IMG/VR virus record: IMGVR_UViG_3300046662_000041
Coordinates: 28,924-92,923 of that record
Source of the DNA: a virus
Lineage: Duplodnaviria > Caudoviricetes
Strand: one strand, 5' to 3'
DNA: 64,000 nt
Shown here: positions 20,632 to 38,983 of the stretch, one piece after another
Numbering within the stretch: position 1 is the stretch's first letter
Layout of the letters: each line of letters opens with the position of its first letter
The notes under the pieces: generated by a model
The model's database searches: none
The model's input: only the letters and a program-made list of their open reading frames with translations
Told to the model about the DNA's origin: nothing
Made by a program: the position numbers and the translations under genes

Positions 20632-21027
20632 ATGGCATTTGATCCACGGCATCCGAATGACCCAGAAAACGAATTGCGCTACTCCGAAGATCAGCCACGT
20701 GACGAGAAGGGGCGCTTCGGATCCGGCGGATCTGCTGCCGAAAAAGCTAACAGTGTGAATGAGCATGAGGCTGCTACGAAACATCACATGAAAATGGCCA
20801 ACAAAGAAGAAGCAAAGGCCAACGAAGCCGAAAGCAAAGGCATGCACGGCGCGGCAGCCTCGCATAAGCAGGCCGCGGATGCACATATTGTTGCAGCAAG
20901 TAAACATGCCGAAGCAGCGGACATGCACAGATCCCTAACACCGTTTTCAGGAAAAGGATCAGTGGATGCGGCAAACGCGCACAGTGCTTATGCTCGCAAT
21001 GCATCTCAGGCTGCTAACGCGAAATAA
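20632..21027 (+). CDS. Ala/His-rich helical protein with a QPRDxxGRF motif, possibly virion-internal
   Basis: SD GAGGT; ELRYSEDQPRDEKGRFGSGG followed by A/H-rich repeats. Confidence 0.7.
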   Translation: MAFDPRHPNDPENELRYSEDQPRDEKGRFGSGGSAAEKANSVNEHEAATKHHMKMANKEEAKANEAESKGMHGAAASHKQAADAHIVAASKHAEAADMHRSLTPFSGKGSVDAANAHSAYARNASQAANAK

Positions 21028-21033
21028 CAAGTT

Positions 21034-21484
21034 TCGGTGCAACGATTAGCGGTTCCTAGGAGCAATCCTTTTGATACTGGGAAAGCAACTCCATCTCGCC
21101 AGGATAGGGAACACGCCGTCAGAATGCCTGGATGCATCGATTAACGCACGTAAATGTCCTATGGTCGCTCAACCGGACACGGGTGCAAATCCCGTCGGCT
21201 CCACCAACTTGCTTCCGCGTCAGATGAGCCGAAACTACTCTACGGAGAGACGGTCGCTGGCGGGAGCAAGACTGCGGGGCCGAACTAGATTCGACGGGTG
21301 AGATCGATGGTAGGAAGCTCGTGCCGACAATGGCCACCGTCGCTAATCGTGGACCAAACAATAAAAGCGAAGCGAATGCTCGCGAAGGTGATCGCGTTTG
21401 TCGAGGCTCCGGTGCGCTCATACGCCCCGGTCGCAGTGGCAGCGTAAATTGCCGGTGGAGGCTGCCCGAAAAGGTGGCCTCCGC
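21034..21484 (+). ncRNA. ssrA: Circularly permuted (two-piece) tmRNA: acceptor piece ~21034-21206, intervening segment 21207-21275, coding piece from 21276
   Basis: T-arm and acceptor 3' end ACGGGTGCAAATCCCGT-CGGCTCC-ACCA (ends 21206) precedes the 5' end GGGGCCG-AACTAGATTCGAC (21276). 7-bp acceptor stem with G3.U70, P2 pairing, PK1 (CGAC/GTCG + CCAC/GTGG), and tag ORF 21367-21447 ending VAVAA*. Confidence 0.93.
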
Positions 21485-21490
21485 ACTTCT
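21455..21490 (+). terminator. Hairpin ending the tmRNA coding piece (intrinsic terminator or 3' stem)
   Basis: GTGGAGGCTGCC-CGAAAA-GGTGGCCTCCGC followed by ACTTCTT. Confidence 0.65.
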
Positions 21491-21511
21491 TGTCAAGTAA
21501 ATACACAAAAC

Positions 21512-21540
21512 TTGACATAATGCTTGTGATTCTGGATGAT
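21512..21540 (+). promoter_or_regulatory. Promoter for the nitrilase-polA operon (leaderless start)
   Basis: TTGACA-N17-GATGAT with ATG 7 nt downstream; the -35 is part of inverted repeat TGTCAAG-N13-CTTGACA. Confidence 0.55.
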
Positions 21541-21547
21541 CCCTCCT

Positions 21548-22618
21548 ATGCCTACCGTGAGAGTTGCTAGCTCCATCCCTCGACAGTTTTGGATGCAATC
21601 AGAGAAATTGGCTTGGCTCGACACCGCTATTGCAGCTAACTCTTGCGATCTGTTTCTAACATCGCAAGAATTCGTTGGCGGCGGTTCGTGTCAGGATTTG
21701 TGTCGCCGCAAAGGCTGGCAAACTGATGACGTGCCTGTGACTCCTGCCTGGCTTAGTGAGCATGTCGGCGGCCTCTGCCAGAAGCATAATGTCCACATCG
21801 GTTTCGGTGCCACCGTCAGCCGTGAAGGCATCAACACAGAAGATTATCTTTACTTCGATCCGACAGGAGAGCTGCTAGGATATCATTCAAAGATAGCACT
21901 TCCTGTCCAGGATAGCATCATCAATAATGGTGCATCACAGGTTACTCCGGAGACAAATTTCGAGCGGGCCACCAGCATTGTCGAGATTCCAGCACTCGGC
22001 CTGCGCGTCGGCACCGTCTTCTGCTGGCAGATTTTCTTTTCCGATTTCTTCACAGAGGTCAAGCGCAACCGTCCCAACCTGCTAGTCAACTGCATTAAAT
22101 TTGCTCCACGAGCATGGTATCAGAAGGATGTGGACCCTGCAGGCCGAAATATACGGAGTGGTTTCTCGCAGGAGACAGGTAGTAGCAAGCCAGAAGACGA
22201 TGCCCTCGGCTGGATTGACAAGCTCCGTTTCGAATCTCGGTACAAGGAATTCCCTATAGCAGTCACGTGCAATACGTGGTCAGCAGGGGCAAAATACCTG
22301 GCTCTGGTTGGCTGGGTGGATGAGGTCACGAAACACACGCACCTCGAGAATCTTCCGTCGGTGGCAGAAGCAGAACGCGTGATTGTGACGGAGTTCGATC
22401 CCAGCCTTTATGCCGAGCTTGAGCACTTGAGCTTGGGTGTATATGCGCGTTTCAAAGGCGATTGGGCAGCTTTAATGCAAGGCACAATGCGGCGAAAGGC
22501 TATCAGGATTGAGCAGCGTTGCCGGAGTGGTAAGACTGCCGAGCAGCTCGCCAAGTACCGTGCCAAACCGAAGCCAGCTAAATCTGTAGAGACACTTCAG
22601 CCAGGGATTTTTGACTAA
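21548..22618 (+). CDS. Carbon-nitrogen hydrolase (nitrilase-superfamily) protein
   Basis: Putative Glu-Lys-Cys triad: DLFLTSQEF, GYHSKIAL, RVGTVFCWQ; C-terminal QPGIFD. Confidence 0.7.
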   Translation: MPTVRVASSIPRQFWMQSEKLAWLDTAIAANSCDLFLTSQEFVGGGSCQDLCRRKGWQTDDVPVTPAWLSEHVGGLCQKHNVHIGFGATVSREGINTEDYLYFDPTGELLGYHSKIALPVQDSIINNGASQVTPETNFERATSIVEIPALGLRVGTVFCWQIFFSDFFTEVKRNRPNLLVNCIKFAPRAWYQKDVDPAGRNIRSGFSQETGSSKPEDDALGWIDKLRFESRYKEFPIAVTCNTWSAGAKYLALVGWVDEVTKHTHLENLPSVAEAERVIVTEFDPSLYAELEHLSLGVYARFKGDWAALMQGTMRRKAIRIEQRCRSGKTAEQLAKYRAKPKPAKSVETLQPGIFD

Positions 22619-24705
22619 TGCCACAAGAAGCTTTCTTCTCCGCTAGTGAGATGGCCGAGATGTCTAGCGGTTTGTGTCCTCCTGCCCCTAAGGATTATCA
22701 CCTCCCGACGTCATTCCCGTGTCTCATCAAAGCCGCACGCATCTGCTACGATATAGAGACCTTCGATCCAAACATTGGCAAGAAGGGCGCCGGCACCTAC
22801 CGTAAGGATGGCAAGATCATCGGCGCAGCGATCGCGGCCTGGGACCATAACGACGTCTTGATGCATGCCGAGTATTATCCTGTCGCCCATCGCAGCGGAC
22901 CAAATCTTGATGAGGATAATGTCTTCAGTTACTTTGCAAACCAGATGGCTTTCTTCGAAGGCGAGCTGATCGGTACTAACTTACTGTATGATATGGACTG
23001 GAGCAGCTCCAAGAAAATCAAGGCTCCTTTTGCAAAATTTCGTGATGTCCAGTTTGCTGAAGCACTCATCGACGAGCTCGCCTTCAATTACAAGCTAGAG
23101 ACGCTCAGCCAGAAGTATCTCGGTCACGGTAAAGTCAAAGATCATTTCGCTCTCTTGTACGGCCCTGACTACATTCAGCGCTTCCACGAAGTGCATCCTG
23201 GGCATGCCCGATTGTATGGACTCGGTGATGTCTTCCAGCCTAAAGAAATTCTTGACCTACAGTACCGTGAACTTGGCCGGCTCGGCATGCTAGATCTCTT
23301 CAATCTCGAGTGTCGGCTGATGCCACTGCTCTTGTATATGAAAGAGCAAGGCGTCCGTATCGATATGAAGCGGGCGATGGAGATCAAGAACATCCTTGAG
23401 GAGAAACGTGCTGCGTGTTTGAAGGCTGCTTCCAAACTGGCTGGCGTTGAGCTCACGGTCGAAAATATGGGCAGTCCGAAGCTGCTAGCCTACATCTTTG
23501 AGAAACAGGGTATCATTATTGCCAAAGCCAAGAAGGGTGGCATCAGCATCACAGGCAAATGGCTGCATCATCTCTGTATGTGCAAGAAGAAGGATGCCGA
23601 AGGAAACCTCATCGATAACCAGGATTGCGGCCACTTAGGCAGGCTGCTTGAATCTGCGAATAAGTATGACAAAGCAAAAGAAGTCTTTGTTGATAGTTAC
23701 ATGTTTGACTTCGCTGTAGATGGGCGGATCCATGCTGACTTCCACCCGTTGCGGAAGGCGGATGATGATGATGACTCTGGCACAGAGTCCGGCCGCTTCA
23801 GTTGCTCACATCCTAATCTTCAAAACATCCCGACAAGAGATGAAGAAATCGGACCGATGTGCCGCTCTTTGTTTATCCCCGAGGAAGGGGCAGAATGGTG
23901 GGCAATAGATTACTCACAGATTGAGTATCGCTTTCTGGCACATAGAGCACTTTGCTTGAAGCCACTTAAGGGTGACGGTGATCACGCGCGCCGCAGAAAA
24001 GCCGCAATCGAAGCAGCACAGTTAGTCAAAAAGATGTATGAAGAAGATCCAAATACAGACTTCCACGAAGCCGTCAAACAGTTGACTGGTCTCAAGCGCA
24101 AGGATGCGAAAAACTTCAACTTCAGGCTAGTGTATGGCGGCGGCAAGGTCGGCGCTGCACAAGTCCTAGGCATGCTTGACAAGGAAGGAAAGCCAACCAA
24201 GGAATTTGAGGTTATTTGGGAGACGTATCATGGCAAGGCGCCTTTCATCAAGGAGCTGCTTGATGAGAGCATGGCACAGGCGCAAAACGACGGCGAGGTC
24301 CGCACGATTCTTAATCGCCGCACTCAGTTCGAATTTTATGAACCGGCTGGCAAGCGTGTACAAAAAGGTGGCTCACTCCCTTTGGCTCAAGCGATCGAAA
24401 AATGGGGCTTCGATCTGCAGCGTGCCAATACCCATAAGGCACTTAACCGCGAACTGCAAGGATCCGCGGCAGATCTTATTAAGATGGCGCTTGCTTTGGC
24501 TTGGGAGCAAGGTGTCTTTACATCGACAAAAGACTTCACGATTGCTCTGCAGGTCCATGATGAAGGTGATGGAAGCAAATTTCCAACCAAGCGCGGCGAA
24601 GAATGCTATCAAGAACTGAAGCACACAATGGAGAATGCATTGGTCTTGAACGTGCCAATAAAAGCTGAAGGTGGAATAGGAAAGAATTGGGCAGAAGCGA
24701 AGTAA
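22618..24705 (+). CDS. polA: Family A DNA polymerase (3'-5' exonuclease + polymerase)
   Basis: DIET, NLLYD, GTESGRFS..PNLQNIP, DYSQIEYR, AKNFNFRLVYG, QGSAADL, QVHDE. Confidence 0.95.
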   Translation: MPQEAFFSASEMAEMSSGLCPPAPKDYHLPTSFPCLIKAARICYDIETFDPNIGKKGAGTYRKDGKIIGAAIAAWDHNDVLMHAEYYPVAHRSGPNLDEDNVFSYFANQMAFFEGELIGTNLLYDMDWSSSKKIKAPFAKFRDVQFAEALIDELAFNYKLETLSQKYLGHGKVKDHFALLYGPDYIQRFHEVHPGHARLYGLGDVFQPKEILDLQYRELGRLGMLDLFNLECRLMPLLLYMKEQGVRIDMKRAMEIKNILEEKRAACLKAASKLAGVELTVENMGSPKLLAYIFEKQGIIIAKAKKGGISITGKWLHHLCMCKKKDAEGNLIDNQDCGHLGRLLESANKYDKAKEVFVDSYMFDFAVDGRIHADFHPLRKADDDDDSGTESGRFSCSHPNLQNIPTRDEEIGPMCRSLFIPEEGAEWWAIDYSQIEYRFLAHRALCLKPLKGDGDHARRRKAAIEAAQLVKKMYEEDPNTDFHEAVKQLTGLKRKDAKNFNFRLVYGGGKVGAAQVLGMLDKEGKPTKEFEVIWETYHGKAPFIKELLDESMAQAQNDGEVRTILNRRTQFEFYEPAGKRVQKGGSLPLAQAIEKWGFDLQRANTHKALNRELQGSAADLIKMALALAWEQGVFTSTKDFTIALQVHDEGDGSKFPTKRGEECYQELKHTMENALVLNVPIKAEGGIGKNWAEAK

Positions 24706-28609: not shown

Positions 28610-30213
28610 TTCCTCCCGTGCTGACGTTCGTATTCACCAGCAAACTCACCGTAAGGATTCCAATCCCGTGCTTCCTTCTGGACATGCGTGCAGTTGATGA
28701 AGTACTGGAAGGTCTGCAGATGCTTCTCCGTCACACCGAAGAGTTGCTGGCCGGCTGGGATCGGCTCTAAACCCCAATTGACGCCCAATTCATTCTGACC
28801 GTTGAGTGATCCGTTTGAGATCAGCCGCGGAAAGGTCACAGGCACGTGAATATCGCCGATACATGCTCGTGCAAATGTTGCACCTTGCAGTCCATTTTTG
28901 TGGCGAAACTCTGGGCTATCAAATAAAGATCGTACTGTCTTGAGAAACGCATCCATGCTCTTAACTTGCATGTCGGGGCTATTCTTATATCCGACCTGCA
29001 TGCCGTGTGCGAAGAGATGACGGTGGCCGCGAATGTCTTCGAAAATATATGGCGACATCCCCTCACGAATCGTGACGCGCGGCGTATTCTTAAATCGCTC
29101 AATCAGCATCTGGTAGATCAGCCAATCAAAAGTACGTTGCGATTGATATTTCATCGGCATATTGAAGCATGTCGATTCCCTCATGTGATTTCCACAAGTG
29201 AAGAGCAGTACAACCTCTTCCACAACGCGGACACCAGTGATCGGGTCAGGCACCGTCAACTGCAGCAGATCGTCAAGGCCAAACTTCAACATCTTAAAAG
29301 TGAAGTCGACCTGCGGCCCAATGAAAAGTGCATTGCTAACCGGGGCATCGTGAAGGTCACCATTGCCCATATCTCCGCCGTACCAGATATAAAGCTTCTT
29401 GATTGGATACATTGCACGGTGCATCGTGAGGATCTGCTTTGCCTTCTCGATCACATACCCAAAGCGATTGCCAGCAACAGGCAGATCATATTCCGGAAAT
29501 CCGCTGGTATCTCCTGGTCTGATCACATCACCAAAATGTGTGTCACTGATCAGGAATACAGCGTCCTCTGTGTGCCCTTCGTTAATGGGCAGCTTCCATT
29601 CAGGCATCTTGGCATGGCTGACCTGCGTCGTCGTCAGATTGACTGCACCAAGCTGCTGCGTGATATCGCGGATTTGCTGGAGGGCTTCCTCGTAAGAAGC
29701 CGTGCTGATCAGAAGTTTTTCACGATAGCGCTTCTCAGCCCCAAGGGACATCGAAAGCCGTTTGTTGAGCTTAAGAAGCTTTGCGTTTTCGCCAGCCAAG
29801 TCATCCTTCTGCTCCTCTGTAAATATACGAGTCAATATGGCGGAAACAGCATAAAGCTCTTTATGATCGGCAATGTACTGCTTATTGGTCTTAGAAGTTT
29901 TATCATCCTGTTTCGTTATCGTGGCGGTCTGTTCAGCAATGAAGCCCATATCCCATTTGCGAGCAGTGAATTCCTTAACCCGCCAGACCGTCGTGTCAAT
30001 CTCGAATGCCTCGATAAGTTGCTCTAGGGTATGGATCCGCGTCTTCGGAATGGAAATTGTACGCTTACTGCCGGTCGTGGTATCTTTCTGCGGTTCTGAG
30101 GTCGGAGGAAGTATACCGCGACCTTGTCCTTGGCATCCGCAAGTTTTGTTTCGAGCGTCATACAGCTTTTCTTTATTACAGGCAGGACACACACGCTTAA
30201 GCATTGTTGGCAT
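28606..30213 (-). CDS. Calcineurin-like metallophosphoesterase with N-terminal Zn finger and coiled coil
   Basis: SDTHFG, GDMGNG, GNH, AHG, GDIH motifs. Confidence 0.8.
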   Translation of the reverse strand: MPTMLKRVCPACNKEKLYDARNKTCGCQGQGRGILPPTSEPQKDTTTGSKRTISIPKTRIHTLEQLIEAFEIDTTVWRVKEFTARKWDMGFIAEQTATITKQDDKTSKTNKQYIADHKELYAVSAILTRIFTEEQKDDLAGENAKLLKLNKRLSMSLGAEKRYREKLLISTASYEEALQQIRDITQQLGAVNLTTTQVSHAKMPEWKLPINEGHTEDAVFLISDTHFGDVIRPGDTSGFPEYDLPVAGNRFGYVIEKAKQILTMHRAMYPIKKLYIWYGGDMGNGDLHDAPVSNALFIGPQVDFTFKMLKFGLDDLLQLTVPDPITGVRVVEEVVLLFTCGNHMRESTCFNMPMKYQSQRTFDWLIYQMLIERFKNTPRVTIREGMSPYIFEDIRGHRHLFAHGMQVGYKNSPDMQVKSMDAFLKTVRSLFDSPEFRHKNGLQGATFARACIGDIHVPVTFPRLISNGSLNGQNELGVNWGLEPIPAGQQLFGVTEKHLQTFQYFINCTHVQKEARDWNPYGEFAGEYERQHGRK

Positions 30214-34792: not shown

Positions 34793-37700
34793 TTACACAT
34801 TGGCAGTAGCTTTGAAGCCGCGGCCAATGATTCCGGAATTCTGGTAGACATTTATTTTGATGCTAGCTTGTACTATACCGAAGTCAGCGATCTGCTGTGC
34901 GGCCGTATAGCTAACTAAAGGTGAAGACAAGGCAGAGAACGTCCGCACCACAGTGTTACCATTCAAGATTTCTACGTCATAGGACTCAGAGAGCTCACTG
35001 ACGGGGACCGTACCAATCCCCTCAAGCCAGTCACCACCAATCCGCGTGCGTCGCACCCAAGTGATGGTCAGATTCTTGCTTCCATCGCGTATACCGGCCA
35101 AGTGGCACGGCGCATAGGGCCGAAGATCATTCGCTGAATTAGTGAAGGATTGTGACACGATCGTTGTAGGATCGGCACCATATGTGACTGGCTTGAAGTA
35201 TCTCAGCACCTGAATGCCAGCCAGACTGCTTTGCTCCCGCTTAATACCACCAGATGCAAGAAGGATCACTGACTCCCCACCACCATGTTGATTGCATGCC
35301 AATTCGGTGCCACGGCGGCCCCTGAGCAGTGTGCTGAGAGTGTAAGATCCATCAACATTTTGCACGGCATTCATAAATTGAATGATTTCGTTGCCAACCA
35401 GCAAGGCATTGTTTCCATTGAGCACGTTCAGCTGGCTGTCACCGGCAAGAGTTCCTTGTAGCATTCTCACGGTCAACGTGTTTACATAATCCCAAGTCCA
35501 GGGCGATCGAGGTGCATTAAAACCACCAAGAGTCACGCCGTAGGAGCATGGGACGCTATCAGTATCCACCTGATTGAAGCTACTATTGTCGCTGCTTTCT
35601 TGCAACGACACGCCGGTCCAATCCACAATATCGCCAGTGCTGAATGCAGCGTAGTATCCAGAGCCAGCAGGATTCATATCCGAATCACGCAACAACGGAA
35701 TGTCCAGCAGGAAAAGGATAGTGTTGGGTATCGTCGCAACGTGCTGTGGAGCTACGGTCGATCCTGTGCCACTTGTGCCTGGCGCTTGCGACGTATAAGG
35801 TGACGTCGCGGGCAGAGAATTTCCGGCTATGAACTGTGCAGGAATTGGCGGGAGCTCTTGCACGCTTTGGGCTTCGATCTTGTAGTCGGCTCCAATAGCA
35901 GTCTTTACAAGACGAGCAGTATAAAGATTGCCTTCATATGTGAAGTTGATCACATCTGTCGGATCAAACAGCATATAGAGCGCTTTCCACAGATTGAAGG
36001 TGTAAGGCTTACGCTCAAGATACTGCAGATACAGCATTCTTTCAGCAATTTGTCGTCCTGTTGCCGCATCAAGTGTGATTGGTAATTCAATGATGTTTTG
36101 ATTCCTAGTCACCACAAGCCGGGAAGCACGGCGTTTCAATTGGTAGTTTTGTTGGTAGTTAAGTGCAGGATCATTGAAAATCACTTTGATCTCAACTGGC
36201 ATGTCCTGAATTTGAGCTAAATGCTCTTGAATCTTAAAATTATCCTTAACAAGACCAAGATCAACTTCAGGAATCGTTAAAGATACAGGTGTACCACCGC
36301 GTGAAACAAAGCGAATGACACCACTTGTCTCACAGCCATCAAAAAAGAAAGCCTCTGCAAGCGGCCGCAACAAATCCTGTGCAGTCGACGGCCGGCCAAC
36401 AATATAGCCCAAAGAAGCAGGCACCGTGACGCTACCAAGCTGGGACACATCGATCTCTGAAGTCGTTAGACCTGCACGCTGGCAGATGTCGCCAACCATT
36501 GCTTGAAGATTATTATTTGCTGCTGGTGAGGGCAGACCAGGAAATTCAAAAAGGAAGACATTTGTTGCTTGACTAATTCCAATCCCATTACCTATAATTC
36601 CAAATGAAAAAGTGTAAACTCCAGCCGCACTTGTTGTTGTCGTTGCCAAAGAGCAAGTAGCACCGACGCCGCCATCACCTGCTGTTACCCAGACATTTCC
36701 TTGAGTATCTGAGATTGGCCCAAACCATGTGCCACTTGCGTTGATGTCACTATTTATTGCCACGAGTATAAGTACGCTTCCTGCCTTAACAGGATTCGCA
36801 AACGGCGTGATGTTAGTATTGACTAGTGGATATACCGCTGGATTCAAACTCGCAAACTGATAGTAACCCTGACTTAGTGCTGTGCCAGAATCAGTATTGT
36901 TATAAAGAGCGTGCGTAAGTGCAAAGCTAAAGAATTTACCAAGCGGGTCAACAGCAGTCACAGTGGCTGACGTCCCGTTAAGAAATGTTGCATTCACGAG
37001 ACCTGTGAACTTTATCAAAGTTCCGACGACGAAAGAACAGAAAGAACCTGTGTTGCAGGTTACTACGTTATTCACGATGCTAACATTCGTGATCGGCACC
37101 GTAAGTGATCCGCCCGAGCCAGCGAATGCAAGAATGTTTGCAGTCCATCGAATGCCCGCTGGACCTAGATCGTCAGAAATTGTTGCAGCACTTGCCAAGC
37201 TCGCGATCGCAAGTGCATATGTACCACTGCTTTCAGTAACGTCAAGTAAATGATTCCAACGGCTTGAAGTCAGATTCAATGCCTGCGTAGTAACGCCCAA
37301 GAAAACCATGTTGCCAGCATTGTACGGAGTATAACCAAAGACCTCTTCCGTATTATCAGCTCCGCGTATGAATGGCGTCTGTTGAAGTGTACCCATACCG
37401 AGCACTGTTTGCGGATTTGTTAAGAAGGTGATCTCTGCACGAACATTAGGGAACCGATTCCCAAAGTTTGCAAGAGGCATATTATTCCAGACACAATAAA
37501 TCAAGGGTCGGAATGCAGGCGTATTCGCAGCACCTTCGGCTGCCTGAATTGTTGGATCCGCATCTTGAAGCTCCGTACCAGTGTAAATTGTTGGCGGGGC
37601 ATACTGCGGTTGGGCAGGTACAGCCCAGCCACAAAACACAGTGCCTGAATCATCTCCAATCGTGAACAAAGTGTTGGGTGGATTGTAATAGGTAAAATGA

Positions 37701-38521
37701 TCTGCCGTGCTACTCACGACTGCGAAGTAGCCAGCATATGCGTTGCCATGCAGACTTGCGGGGATATCAATAATCAAAACTTGTGTGCCAGGGTCCGGAT
37801 TGAGATTAGATTTGGCAGTTACAAGATCGCCAACCATGCTCAGTTTCGTGATTTGTTGGCCGCCAGATGACGTTATTCCAACAGTACCACCTGTCGAAGC
37901 ACCAAAGCCGATGCCTAATTGATCTCGAACAGCAAATTGATGCGGCGAGATGACAGCAACAACATTTGTTACCTGATCAATGTTGACAGTCTGACCACCA
38001 CCTGTTCCTGTTCCAGCAATTGTGACTTGTGTTCCTACTTGCACAGGAAATGCAACTGACGTTGTGATAACTATATTCCCAGCAATTACCGCAAACAAAA
38101 TAGGGACATAGTTGTCCTTGGGATCATAGGCAATCTTTGAATCAAACCAGATCCTTCCCACTTTACCAGGCCCCTCGCCAAATGCAACAGCAAAGCTTCC
38201 TGTGTAATTGTATGTTGTCTGCTTCGGCTGGCCGCCCTTTCCGCCGATGCCGCCTCCAGTGGTTGTCGCATGCTCTGTTATCCCGCTTGTCCAGATCATG
38301 TTGCCAGCAACGCGACCTGTACCATATCCAAAAGCAATTGGTGCGCCATTCGTTGCAGAAGATACTTGGAGATCATTTAGCCGAGGACCATTTGGCAGTT
38401 TACCAGGAAAGAGCATACTGCCTACTAAGCCACCCATAGTCAAGCCTATCTCAGCACCTATTGGGCCACCGAGAAGGAAGCCCACAGCCCCACCGACAAG
38501 CGCTAATCCAATCTTTGCCAC
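34793..38521 (-). CDS. Central tail/host-specificity protein (GTA megatron / Phage-tail_3-like)
   Basis: GPRLNDLQV, YGTGRVAGNMIW, PAFRP..Y, LLDIPLL, LLRGRRGTE, WVRRTR, SESYDVEI. Confidence 0.85.
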   Translation of the reverse strand: MAKIGLALVGGAVGFLLGGPIGAEIGLTMGGLVGSMLFPGKLPNGPRLNDLQVSSATNGAPIAFGYGTGRVAGNMIWTSGITEHATTTGGGIGGKGGQPKQTTYNYTGSFAVAFGEGPGKVGRIWFDSKIAYDPKDNYVPILFAVIAGNIVITTSVAFPVQVGTQVTIAGTGTGGGQTVNIDQVTNVVAVISPHQFAVRDQLGIGFGASTGGTVGITSSGGQQITKLSMVGDLVTAKSNLNPDPGTQVLIIDIPASLHGNAYAGYFAVVSSTADHFTYYNPPNTLFTIGDDSGTVFCGWAVPAQPQYAPPTIYTGTELQDADPTIQAAEGAANTPAFRPLIYCVWNNMPLANFGNRFPNVRAEITFLTNPQTVLGMGTLQQTPFIRGADNTEEVFGYTPYNAGNMVFLGVTTQALNLTSSRWNHLLDVTESSGTYALAIASLASAATISDDLGPAGIRWTANILAFAGSGGSLTVPITNVSIVNNVVTCNTGSFCSFVVGTLIKFTGLVNATFLNGTSATVTAVDPLGKFFSFALTHALYNNTDSGTALSQGYYQFASLNPAVYPLVNTNITPFANPVKAGSVLILVAINSDINASGTWFGPISDTQGNVWVTAGDGGVGATCSLATTTTSAAGVYTFSFGIIGNGIGISQATNVFLFEFPGLPSPAANNNLQAMVGDICQRAGLTTSEIDVSQLGSVTVPASLGYIVGRPSTAQDLLRPLAEAFFFDGCETSGVIRFVSRGGTPVSLTIPEVDLGLVKDNFKIQEHLAQIQDMPVEIKVIFNDPALNYQQNYQLKRRASRLVVTRNQNIIELPITLDAATGRQIAERMLYLQYLERKPYTFNLWKALYMLFDPTDVINFTYEGNLYTARLVKTAIGADYKIEAQSVQELPPIPAQFIAGNSLPATSPYTSQAPGTSGTGSTVAPQHVATIPNTILFLLDIPLLRDSDMNPAGSGYYAAFSTGDIVDWTGVSLQESSDNSSFNQVDTDSVPCSYGVTLGGFNAPRSPWTWDYVNTLTVRMLQGTLAGDSQLNVLNGNNALLVGNEIIQFMNAVQNVDGSYTLSTLLRGRRGTELACNQHGGGESVILLASGGIKREQSSLAGIQVLRYFKPVTYGADPTTIVSQSFTNSANDLRPYAPCHLAGIRDGSKNLTITWVRRTRIGGDWLEGIGTVPVSELSESYDVEILNGNTVVRTFSALSSPLVSYTAAQQIADFGIVQASIKINVYQNSGIIGRGFKATANV

Positions 38522-38983
38522 TTAATCCTCCACATCAGGAAACAAAAATGCGGCGGCCGTTATGCCTTGCCAATAAAGATCGTAGATGTGTTCTACGACC
38601 TTACGGTTAGGAGAGTATGCATGGATAATTCCAATGTCCGTCACAATAGCTGCATGACACGGCACGGGTTTCGATAAGGTGCGCGTATAGATTGGCTGCT
38701 GCAAGCAAAGAATGTCACCTGGCTTGACCGCTGTAATTGAGATCTCTTTGAGCATTCGCTTCATGCCTTGTAGCACTTGATCATCTTGTGGAAATTGACT
38801 GTAGTTACATTTCGTAACAGGCATCCCCAATGCCTCCATACGAGGCCCGTAACCAAGGGCGATCCCAACGCAAATTGGTAAACCAATGCAATCGATGCCG
38901 CGGTCTTTCGACCGCCCTTGATGCAAAAAGGGTGTATTAAGAAACATGCGTGCTGTTGCTACAATCTGTGCTCGCGTTGGCAT
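38522..38983 (-). CDS. NlpC/P60 tail-associated peptidase
   Basis: TPFLHQGR..GIDCIGL, PGD, HAAI, IIHAY. Confidence 0.9.
   Translation of the reverse strand: MPTRAQIVATARMFLNTPFLHQGRSKDRGIDCIGLPICVGIALGYGPRMEALGMPVTKCNYSQFPQDDQVLQGMKRMLKEISITAVKPGDILCLQQPIYTRTLSKPVPCHAAIVTDIGIIHAYSPNRKVVEHIYDLYWQGITAAAFLFPDVED

Follow-up and report, generated by a model that had tools for sequence, protein, structure and literature searches.

We examined a 64,000-nucleotide (nt) window, positions 28,924 to 92,923 of the IMG/VR record IMGVR_UViG_3300046662_000041 (Caudoviricetes), and found on its plus strand a complete permuted (two-piece) transfer-messenger RNA (tmRNA) gene, carried by a genuine phage genome. 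We are fairly confident that this gene specifies a functional phage-encoded two-piece tmRNA, most likely derived from an alpha-type pool in phages of Alphaproteobacteria and since strongly diverged. Judged from its sequence, the gene is unusual in having no close homolog, a 26-codon tag that does not begin with ANDN, and no recognizable second pseudoknot.

A complete permuted tmRNA gene on a phage genome

ARAGORN called one tmRNA in the window, of the permuted type (21114-21538, plus strand), and the Rfam model RF04321 (tmRNA_permuted) matched 21146-21447 with 91.9 bits against a gathering threshold (GA) of 47 (E 2e-16), with all 213 model positions aligned (1-213/213). The gene itself extends over about 21146-21494. 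This signal is far above chance expectation and bears out a first-pass annotation, made by a model from the sequence alone, that had read the locus as a permuted two-piece tmRNA gene. The lineage-specific models that it had proposed alongside ARAGORN were also run. RF01849 (alpha_tmRNA) gave 50.1 bits against GA 50, covering just model positions 40-236 of 355, while RF01850 (beta_tmRNA) aligned end to end (1-331) with 47 bits, below its GA of 84. RF01851 (cyano_tmRNA) covered the tRNA-like part alone (31.2 bits, below GA 70), and the standard one-piece model RF00023 covered the T-arm and acceptor stretch alone (18 bits, below GA 47). Beyond the tmRNA models, no Rfam family reached threshold at the locus.

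Both the sequence and the RF04321 alignment place the acceptor (3′) half of the gene upstream of its coding (5′) half, with an intervening sequence between them. A tRNA-like domain is present, with a 7-base-pair (bp) acceptor stem containing G3.U70, a T-arm and a 3′ CCA, as read from the sequence and from the ARAGORN domains. The core of the acceptor piece spans 21146-21206, as delimited by the RF04321 alignment, the ARAGORN 3′ tRNA domain and a cofold with the coding piece. Within it, the T-arm consists of ACGGG (21179-83), the loop TGCAAAT (21184-90) and CCCGT (21191-95), and is followed by the 3′ strand of the acceptor stem, CGGCTCC (21196-21202), and an encoded ACCA (21203-06). The intervening sequence of 69 nt (21207-21275), which is expected to be removed from the precursor, forms a long hairpin, in which CTTGCTTCCGC (21208-18) pairs with GCGGGAGCAAG (21260-70), stacked on the acceptor stem. 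The 5′ part of the coding piece (21276-21324) comprises the acceptor 5′ strand GGGGCCG (21276-82; 7 pairs, including G3.U70), a 13-nt D-loop analogue and the 5′ strands of three P2 helices. P2a pairs GGGTGAG (21296-302) with CTCAACC (21168-74), P2b pairs ATGGTAGGA (21307-15) with GTCCTATGG (21156-64), and P2c pairs CGTGC (21320-24) with GCACG (21146-50). An H-type pseudoknot, PK1, occupies 21325-21352; its stem 1 (CGAC 21325-28 with GTCG 21339-42) is modelled and matched by RF04321, and its stem 2 (CCAC 21334-37 with GTGG 21349-52) comes from sequence reading alone and lies outside every model. The T-arm, acceptor stem, P2, PK1 and resume context listed by the first-pass annotation were all found where it had placed them.

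Folding calculations agree with this layout. The acceptor stem and intervening sequence together (21196-21282) form one long hairpin of -45 kcal/mol (z = -4.39; 0 of 200 shuffles as good), and the 69-nt intervening length falls inside the range of 13 to 232 nt recorded for 76 viral permuted tmRNAs. In the centroid fold computed for the whole region, both the tRNA-like domain and the P2 helices reappear. When the two predicted mature pieces were cofolded, 30 intermolecular pairs formed (z = -3.75), and none of 300 shuffled acceptor pieces reached the same association energy. In these models every element required for a two-piece tmRNA is intact, and the two pieces are predicted to be able to assemble.

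Acceptor pairs 5 and 6 show covariation among 50 unique viral homologs, all 50 of which form standard pairs there, and G3.U70, also present here, is invariant (50/50). Relative to these homologs, the helices of the window gene are intact and show compensatory changes. The covariance support that the first-pass annotation had called for was thus obtained for acceptor pairs 5 and 6 across the 50 viral homologs; no lineage-specific covariation was seen and no close homolog was found.

The record that carries the gene comprises 92,923 bases, is estimated to be 83% complete and belongs to a siphophage. It encodes a large terminase, a portal, a head protease, a major capsid protein, a tape measure and tail proteins, as expected of a real tailed phage, and the tmRNA lies inside a replication module, surrounded by a primase-helicase, a UvrD-type helicase and a UvsX-like recombinase. 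A protein-coding reading of the locus was rejected, as the open reading frames (ORFs) overlapping the tmRNA have no protein family match. It is extremely improbable that the locus is host DNA, whether a remnant of an ssrA attachment site or part of a chimeric or mis-binned contig. Prophages do frequently integrate at tmRNA genes, and fragments of ssrA are common in phages (PMC9004378); here, however, the gene is complete instead of a 3′ fragment, it sits mid-contig between phage genes, no tyrosine integrase was found in the record, and the GC content of the locus is continuous with its flanks. Because the gene is complete, has phage genes on either side and is not accompanied by an integrase, an attachment-site remnant was rejected.

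Tag frame and 3′ region

An A-rich spacer (21353-66) leads from PK1 to GCG 21367, which RF04321 and RF01849 both place, with high posterior probability, at their consensus resume codon. AATAAAA lies directly before this codon, with U at -5 and A at -4; the equivalent U85 and A86 are the main frame determinant in E. coli tmRNA (PMC2481249). Translated from GCG, the tag AKRMLAKVIAFVEAPVRSYAPVAVAA runs for 26 codons to a TAA stop at 21445-47. It ends in VAVAA before the stop, and the remaining two frames have no tag-like end. ARAGORN offered an alternative start at an in-frame GTG (21349), which lies inside PK1 stem 2 and would extend the frame to 32 codons, and its output read 'Tag not identified'.

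With either start the tag is an outlier, as those of 75 other viral permuted tmRNAs have 9 to 17 codons and nearly all start with AN(D/N/E). Residues 1-18 are basic and hydrophobic and lack the ANDN start; the conventional part is the last 8 residues only. Hence AKRMLAKVIAFVEAPVRSYAPVAVAA does not conform to the alpha-type tag pattern (ANDN...(L/V)AA, ~12 to 14 residues), and only its last 8 residues are alpha-like. A search of IMG/VR with back-translated YAPVAVAA plus stop returned exactly one contig (L270), which encodes a textbook alpha tmRNA tag, ANDNYAPVAVAA, and scores 300 bits on the alpha model. This match within a canonical alpha tag confirms the reading frame and indicates alpha-type tag ancestry.

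Two further sets of tags were recorded during these searches. A Candidatus Nomurabacteria metagenome-assembled genome (MAG; JACKGM010000002.1, L269, 7476-7868) has a one-piece tmRNA whose T-arm is identical to that of the window gene and whose tag has 25 residues; long tags therefore exist outside the permuted families. Permuted tmRNAs on two IMG/VR contigs (L012, 10039-10525; L084, 3869-4355) were assigned the non-canonical tag EKKNDYKIIIGRPA by ARAGORN, probably because the resume codon was miscalled or because this is a further atypical phage tag.

The atypical tag raises the question of whether this is a real gene that serves as a decoy or modifier, either competing for host SmpB and AlaRS or altering the fate of tagged proteins, through slower, adaptor-independent degradation, for the benefit of the phage. 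Few of the 75 other viral copies lack the ANDN start as the window gene does, the length of 26 codons compares with 9 to 17, ARAGORN did not identify a tag, and phage DS6A has a tmRNA-like RNA that inhibits host tmRNA in E. coli (PMC11915505). However, everything that normal tagging requires is preserved, from the frame determinants to the canonical hydrophobic AA end, and the DS6A RNA has no tag frame at all, whereas the window gene has one. We consider the decoy or modifier role unlikely. In the same vein, there is a slim chance that a long basic and hydrophobic tag lacking the ANDN adaptor-binding start and retaining the VAVAA degron is a phage adaptation that reprogrammes host trans-translation. 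If so, tagged proteins would be uncoupled from the host SspB-type adaptor or turned over more slowly, and the phage would be reprogramming trans-translation as opposed to merely supplementing it. Through this tag one can ask whether phages adjust the outcome of trans-translation in addition to its capacity.

The 3′ region also departs from canonical alpha copies. Here, the spacing between stop codon and terminal hairpin is only 7 nt, compared with ~55 nt in canonical alpha copies, and reviews place the second pseudoknot of two-piece tmRNAs in this tag-to-terminal-hairpin region (PMC3985003). Because the ~55-nt second-pseudoknot region is missing, the RNA appears to have PK1 only. A terminator-like scan located the 3′-terminal hairpin region at 21455-21494, with 12 bp (8 of them G-C) at 21455-84 followed by ACTTCTTGTC; this hairpin is probably the terminator and the 3′ end of the gene. 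Its terminal stem GGAGGC/GCCTCC with ACT resembles the alpha consensus 3′ end, a likeness that is not significant (p = 0.08) and gave no covariance model hit; on its own, the 3′ part of the window gene is not recognised by the alpha model.

Lineage, phage relatives and host

A two-piece tmRNA in a phage is not new as such; these genes are documented and common in aquatic phages. Among 18,146 phage genomes, 133 unique tmRNAs were reported, 53 of them two-piece, of which 50 were marine or aquatic (Buchholz et al. 2022, PMC9004378), and the two-piece ssrA of the OM43 phage Melnitz and of pelagiphages has been described in detail (PMC9004378). A 2025 tmRNA database lists 79 phage sequences (PMC11915505), and Bradyrhizobium elkanii siphophages with PolA carry a tmRNA gene whose form, permuted or not, is unstated (PMC12656738). 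With a degenerate T-arm plus acceptor pattern we retrieved 99 IMG/VR contigs, and 76 fetched loci had a permuted tmRNA called by ARAGORN. Given the 53 of 133 published phage tmRNAs that are two-piece (PMC9004378) and these 76 more on IMG/VR contigs, the view of the first-pass annotation that phage tmRNAs are uncommon was overstated. The window gene therefore adds a strongly diverged example to a growing set of phage-borne two-piece tmRNAs, not a new category.

The most informative comparison is with isolated phages that share a tail module with the window phage, consisting of an NlpC/P60 peptidase and a gene transfer agent (GTA)-type tail protein. In the window, the GTA-type tail/host-specificity protein (34793-38521, minus strand; 1242 amino acids) matches PHROG 4271 with E 1e-181, and a small ORF of 153 amino acids (38522-38983, minus strand) occupies the position of the NlpC/P60 peptidase in five relatives. 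The same tail gene order was seen in phages of Caulobacter, Sphingobium and Erythrobacter, in PhiJL001 and in a Microcystis phage. Three of five such isolates carry a permuted tmRNA, namely Sphingobium phage Lacusarx, in which ssrA is annotated in GenBank (LAV_00111) and permuted like the window gene, Erythrobacter phage vB_EliS-L02 and Caulobacter phage CcrColossus, all of them virulent siphophages; no matching one-piece form was found in these three genomes. Their tmRNAs score much as the window gene does, with 84 to 92 bits on RF04321 and 53 to 84 bits on the alpha model, and share 41 to 46% identity with it over the tRNA-like, P2 and PK1 region. They differ in their tags, which start with (A/V)NDND and have 15 to 17 residues compared with 26 codons and no ANDN in the window gene, and in their surroundings, since tRNA arrays adjoin the tmRNA in two of the three, whereas the window tmRNA lies in a replication module and a single tRNA, Arg-TCT, accompanies it in the genome.

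Several of these isolate genes had escaped annotation. Those of CcrColossus (JX100810.1, 132369-132662; L279, 1501-1794; RF04321, 83.8 bits) and of Brevundimonas phage Kikimora (ON529857.1; L101, 1469-1814; RF04321, 57.7 bits) have no GenBank feature and were missed by ARAGORN, and both lie between tRNA-Cys and tRNA-Met. That of vB_EliS-L02 (OL955261.1, 75768-76055; L277, 1501-1788; RF04321, 91.9 bits) likewise has no GenBank feature.

Other known systems show the same mixture of likeness and difference. Melnitz and Pelagibacter phage Mosig (PMC9004378) resemble the window phage in having a complete permuted ssrA of alpha-type affinity and no reported phage SmpB; however, Melnitz is a T4-like myophage with a glutamine riboswitch in the ssrA 3′ domain, while the window phage is a siphophage with an atypical tag and no other Rfam family at the locus. 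With bacterial alpha-type genes (RF01849), the window gene has in common the order of acceptor piece, intervening hairpin and coding piece, the G3.U70 pair, three P2 helices with a UAAA internal loop, PK1, an A-rich spacer before GCN, a tag ending in a hydrophobic residue and AA, and a terminal hairpin. An alpha-type two-piece tmRNA is functional in Caulobacter, according to Keiler et al. 2000 as cited in PMC3985003. Unlike the alpha type, whose T-loop is GGCGGTA, the window gene has the T-loop TGCAAAT and a fully encoded CCA, and a canonical alpha copy reaches 300 bits on the alpha model, compared with 50.1 here.

Alpha-type descent is favoured on these sequence comparisons, at clearly better than an even chance. 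Alpha is the only lineage model whose threshold the window gene reaches (50.1 against 50), and the seven nearest neighbours are all alpha-type by Rfam. Maximum likelihood (ML) trees placed the gene within the alpha-type group (90/92, and 96/93 minus another long branch), with an alpha/beta split of 81/85 once isolates were added. Clear-type viral copies score 74 to 125 bits on the alpha or beta models; tmRNAs of phages of Alphaproteobacteria have alpha-model scores of 53.5 (CcrColossus), 79.5 (Lacusarx) and 83.7 bits (the Erythrobacter phage), compared with 300 for the canonical bacterial type. Low alpha scores are therefore to be expected of alpha-type tmRNAs carried by phages. Some phage copies (L002, L052 and that of Kikimora) pass the generic model only. 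As lineage-specific Rfam models under-score phage copies, such genes are easily missed or misread as novel. The first-pass annotation had also raised the case of near identity to a known alphaproteobacterial permuted ssrA. None was found, the nearest neighbour being 53 to 58% identical over the tRNA-like, P2 and PK1 region (the median nearest neighbour of the others is 85%), and it is affinity with the alpha type that the data favour. Under this scheme, the gene would stem from an alpha-type permuted pool circulating in phages of Alphaproteobacteria, and its subsequent strong divergence would have included loss of the second pseudoknot, loss of the ANDN tag start and a gain of ~13 tag codons.

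The first-pass annotation had instead proposed an independent permutation, in a phage lineage, of a one-piece tmRNA, with a host that itself has the one-piece form. All lineage models are weak, including the partial alpha match, no close homolog exists among the sequences searched, and approximately unbiased (AU) tests cannot force the gene into the alpha group. The exact T-arm occurs, among bacterial genomes, in two Clostridia MAGs and the Nomurabacteria MAG only, the last with a one-piece tmRNA; these matches give no clue to the host. However, the one-piece model reaches just 18 bits, and tmRNAs from phages known to infect Alphaproteobacteria score just as weakly on the alpha model. The gene also agrees with alpha-type copies in its tag end, its resume context and the arrangement of P2 (5+7+6 pairs with a UAAA internal loop). 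The trees lie on the alpha side, and the tail, PolA and capsid relatives mostly infect hosts with two-piece tmRNAs. Nothing positive was found for an independent permutation, and the trees, the best lineage model and the tag end YAPVAVAA lean toward the alpha type; we regard it as very unlikely.

The host evidence follows a similar pattern. Matches to the GTA-type tail protein comprise 122 phage records, mostly phages of Caulobacter, Rhodobacter, Brevundimonas, Roseobacter, Dinoroseobacter, Erythrobacter, Sphingobium and Ruegeria. The best isolate matches of PolA are two Dinoroseobacter phages, and the best capsid matches are Rhizobium and Sinorhizobium phages. In the tmRNA database table, permuted forms occur almost exclusively in Pseudomonadota (21,950 of alpha type and 594 of beta type) and Cyanobacteriota (1,062). 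Nothing was found behind the suggested host with a one-piece tmRNA, as the tail, PolA and capsid matches are mostly phages of hosts with two-piece tmRNAs, and an alphaproteobacterial host with a two-piece tmRNA is the better bet. Counter-signals on the host come from PolA, which also resembles Pseudanabaena and Synechococcus phage polymerases, and from the terminase, whose best isolate matches are Ralstonia and Burkholderia phages.

A functional tmRNA of alpha-type descent has several observations against it. The window gene has the longest terminal branch in the ML trees, and AU tests reject neither a beta-side placement (p = 0.45) nor a placement outside the alpha group (p = 0.46). The likeness of PK1 to a canonical alpha copy is not significant (p = 0.18), as was the case for the terminal hairpin. 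The 5′ tRNA-like part is most like that of a beta-type copy (L057, 89% identical). No close homolog was recovered from IMG/VR with exact and degenerate T-arm/acceptor patterns, the coding-piece 5′ end or the tag end, and so none was found to show conservation of the long tag. The single best tail-protein match is a Microcystis phage that lacks a permuted tmRNA. A promoter scan found no sigma-70-like promoter upstream of the tmRNA, and its expression, processing, charging and tagging are predicted steps.

Some of these points bear on descent from another permuted pool, which is possible. For a beta-type (or another) pool carried by phages, the end-to-end alignment of the beta model, the likeness to L057, the beta-side AU result and the Ralstonia and Burkholderia terminase matches can all be cited. 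Yet 47 bits is far under the beta threshold of 84, viral beta-type copies score 93 to 125 bits, the ML trees favour the alpha side and the tag end is alpha-like, leaving such a pool an improbable source. PolA was of little help as a guide to relatives. A single-protein scan of IMG/VR gave nothing, and an alignment-based scan found relatives of at most 38% identity, none with a tmRNA within 6 kb of PolA. PolA homologs 50 to 64% identical lie on long contigs in a large protein database, five of them (P0001, P0004, P0005, P0007 and P0013) on contigs of 44 to 86 kb; P0014 is not in IMG/VR.

Predicted processing and genomic surroundings

The processing, charging, SmpB delivery, tagging and degradation steps set out here rest on established tmRNA biology (PMC3985003, PMC3968760). 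A single precursor transcript would arise by read-through from upstream plus-strand genes or start in the 118-nt leader, and would end at the hairpin 21455-84. With its acceptor stem and 69-nt intervening hairpin, this precursor would resemble a tRNA precursor, such that host RNase P could cut at G21276 and host 3′-end enzymes could trim to the encoded CCA at 21206. The products would be an acceptor piece, beginning at or a little before ~21146 and ending at 21206, and a coding piece, from 21276 to ~21490; folding predicts that the two are held together by the acceptor stem and three P2 helices, ~30 bp in all. Host AlaRS would charge the RNA through G3.U70, and host SmpB and EF-Tu would bring it to ribosomes stalled on broken mRNAs. 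Resumption at GCG 21367 would then add the 26-residue tag ending in VAVAA and direct the product to ClpXP-type proteolysis. The first-pass annotation had seen no smpB in the window, and this holds for the whole 92.9-kb record, in which no SmpB is encoded; host SmpB, RNase P and AlaRS would therefore be needed. The benefit to the phage may, speculatively, be that ribosomes are kept available while host mRNA is degraded. Published suggestions are that it sustains the translation machinery taken over by the phage or helps to recycle host protein (PMC9004378).

Upstream, a non-coding region (21028-21145) follows the stop of the ORF at 20632-21027 and is a possible precursor leader or promoter. Its structure is no stronger than that of shuffles (z = -0.56), and a weak hairpin at 21131-43 is the sole upstream part aligned by the alpha model. 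An 8-bp helix (21034-41/21133-40) that the first-pass annotation had taken to close the acceptor-piece domain is real as complementarity and present in the minimum free energy fold, but the region as a whole folds no better than shuffles and no model or homolog covers the helix. No promoter-like site precedes the gene and a probable terminator follows it; the tmRNA may be the last unit of an upstream plus-strand operon. A 9-base perfect complementarity between the leader (21043-21051) and PK1 loop 3 (21341-21349), both on the plus strand, is used by the whole-region centroid fold; by our own estimate, chance alone would produce ~0.4 such matches in 467 nt, and this one is probably meaningless.

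Just downstream, a nitrilase-like gene (21536-22618) is coupled to the gene for the family A DNA polymerase PolA (22618-24705). At 21490-21540 (plus strand), directly before the nitrilase-like gene, a palindrome, TTGTCAAGT...ACTTGACA, overlaps a promoter-like TTGACA/17 nt/GATGAT, and from its sequence the site looks like an operator-controlled promoter. Elsewhere in the window, the interval between a small ORF and the UvrD-type helicase gene contains a match to the CyVA-1 RNA motif (RF02965; 16392-16471, minus strand) that barely exceeds its threshold, with 42.6 bits against 41.4.

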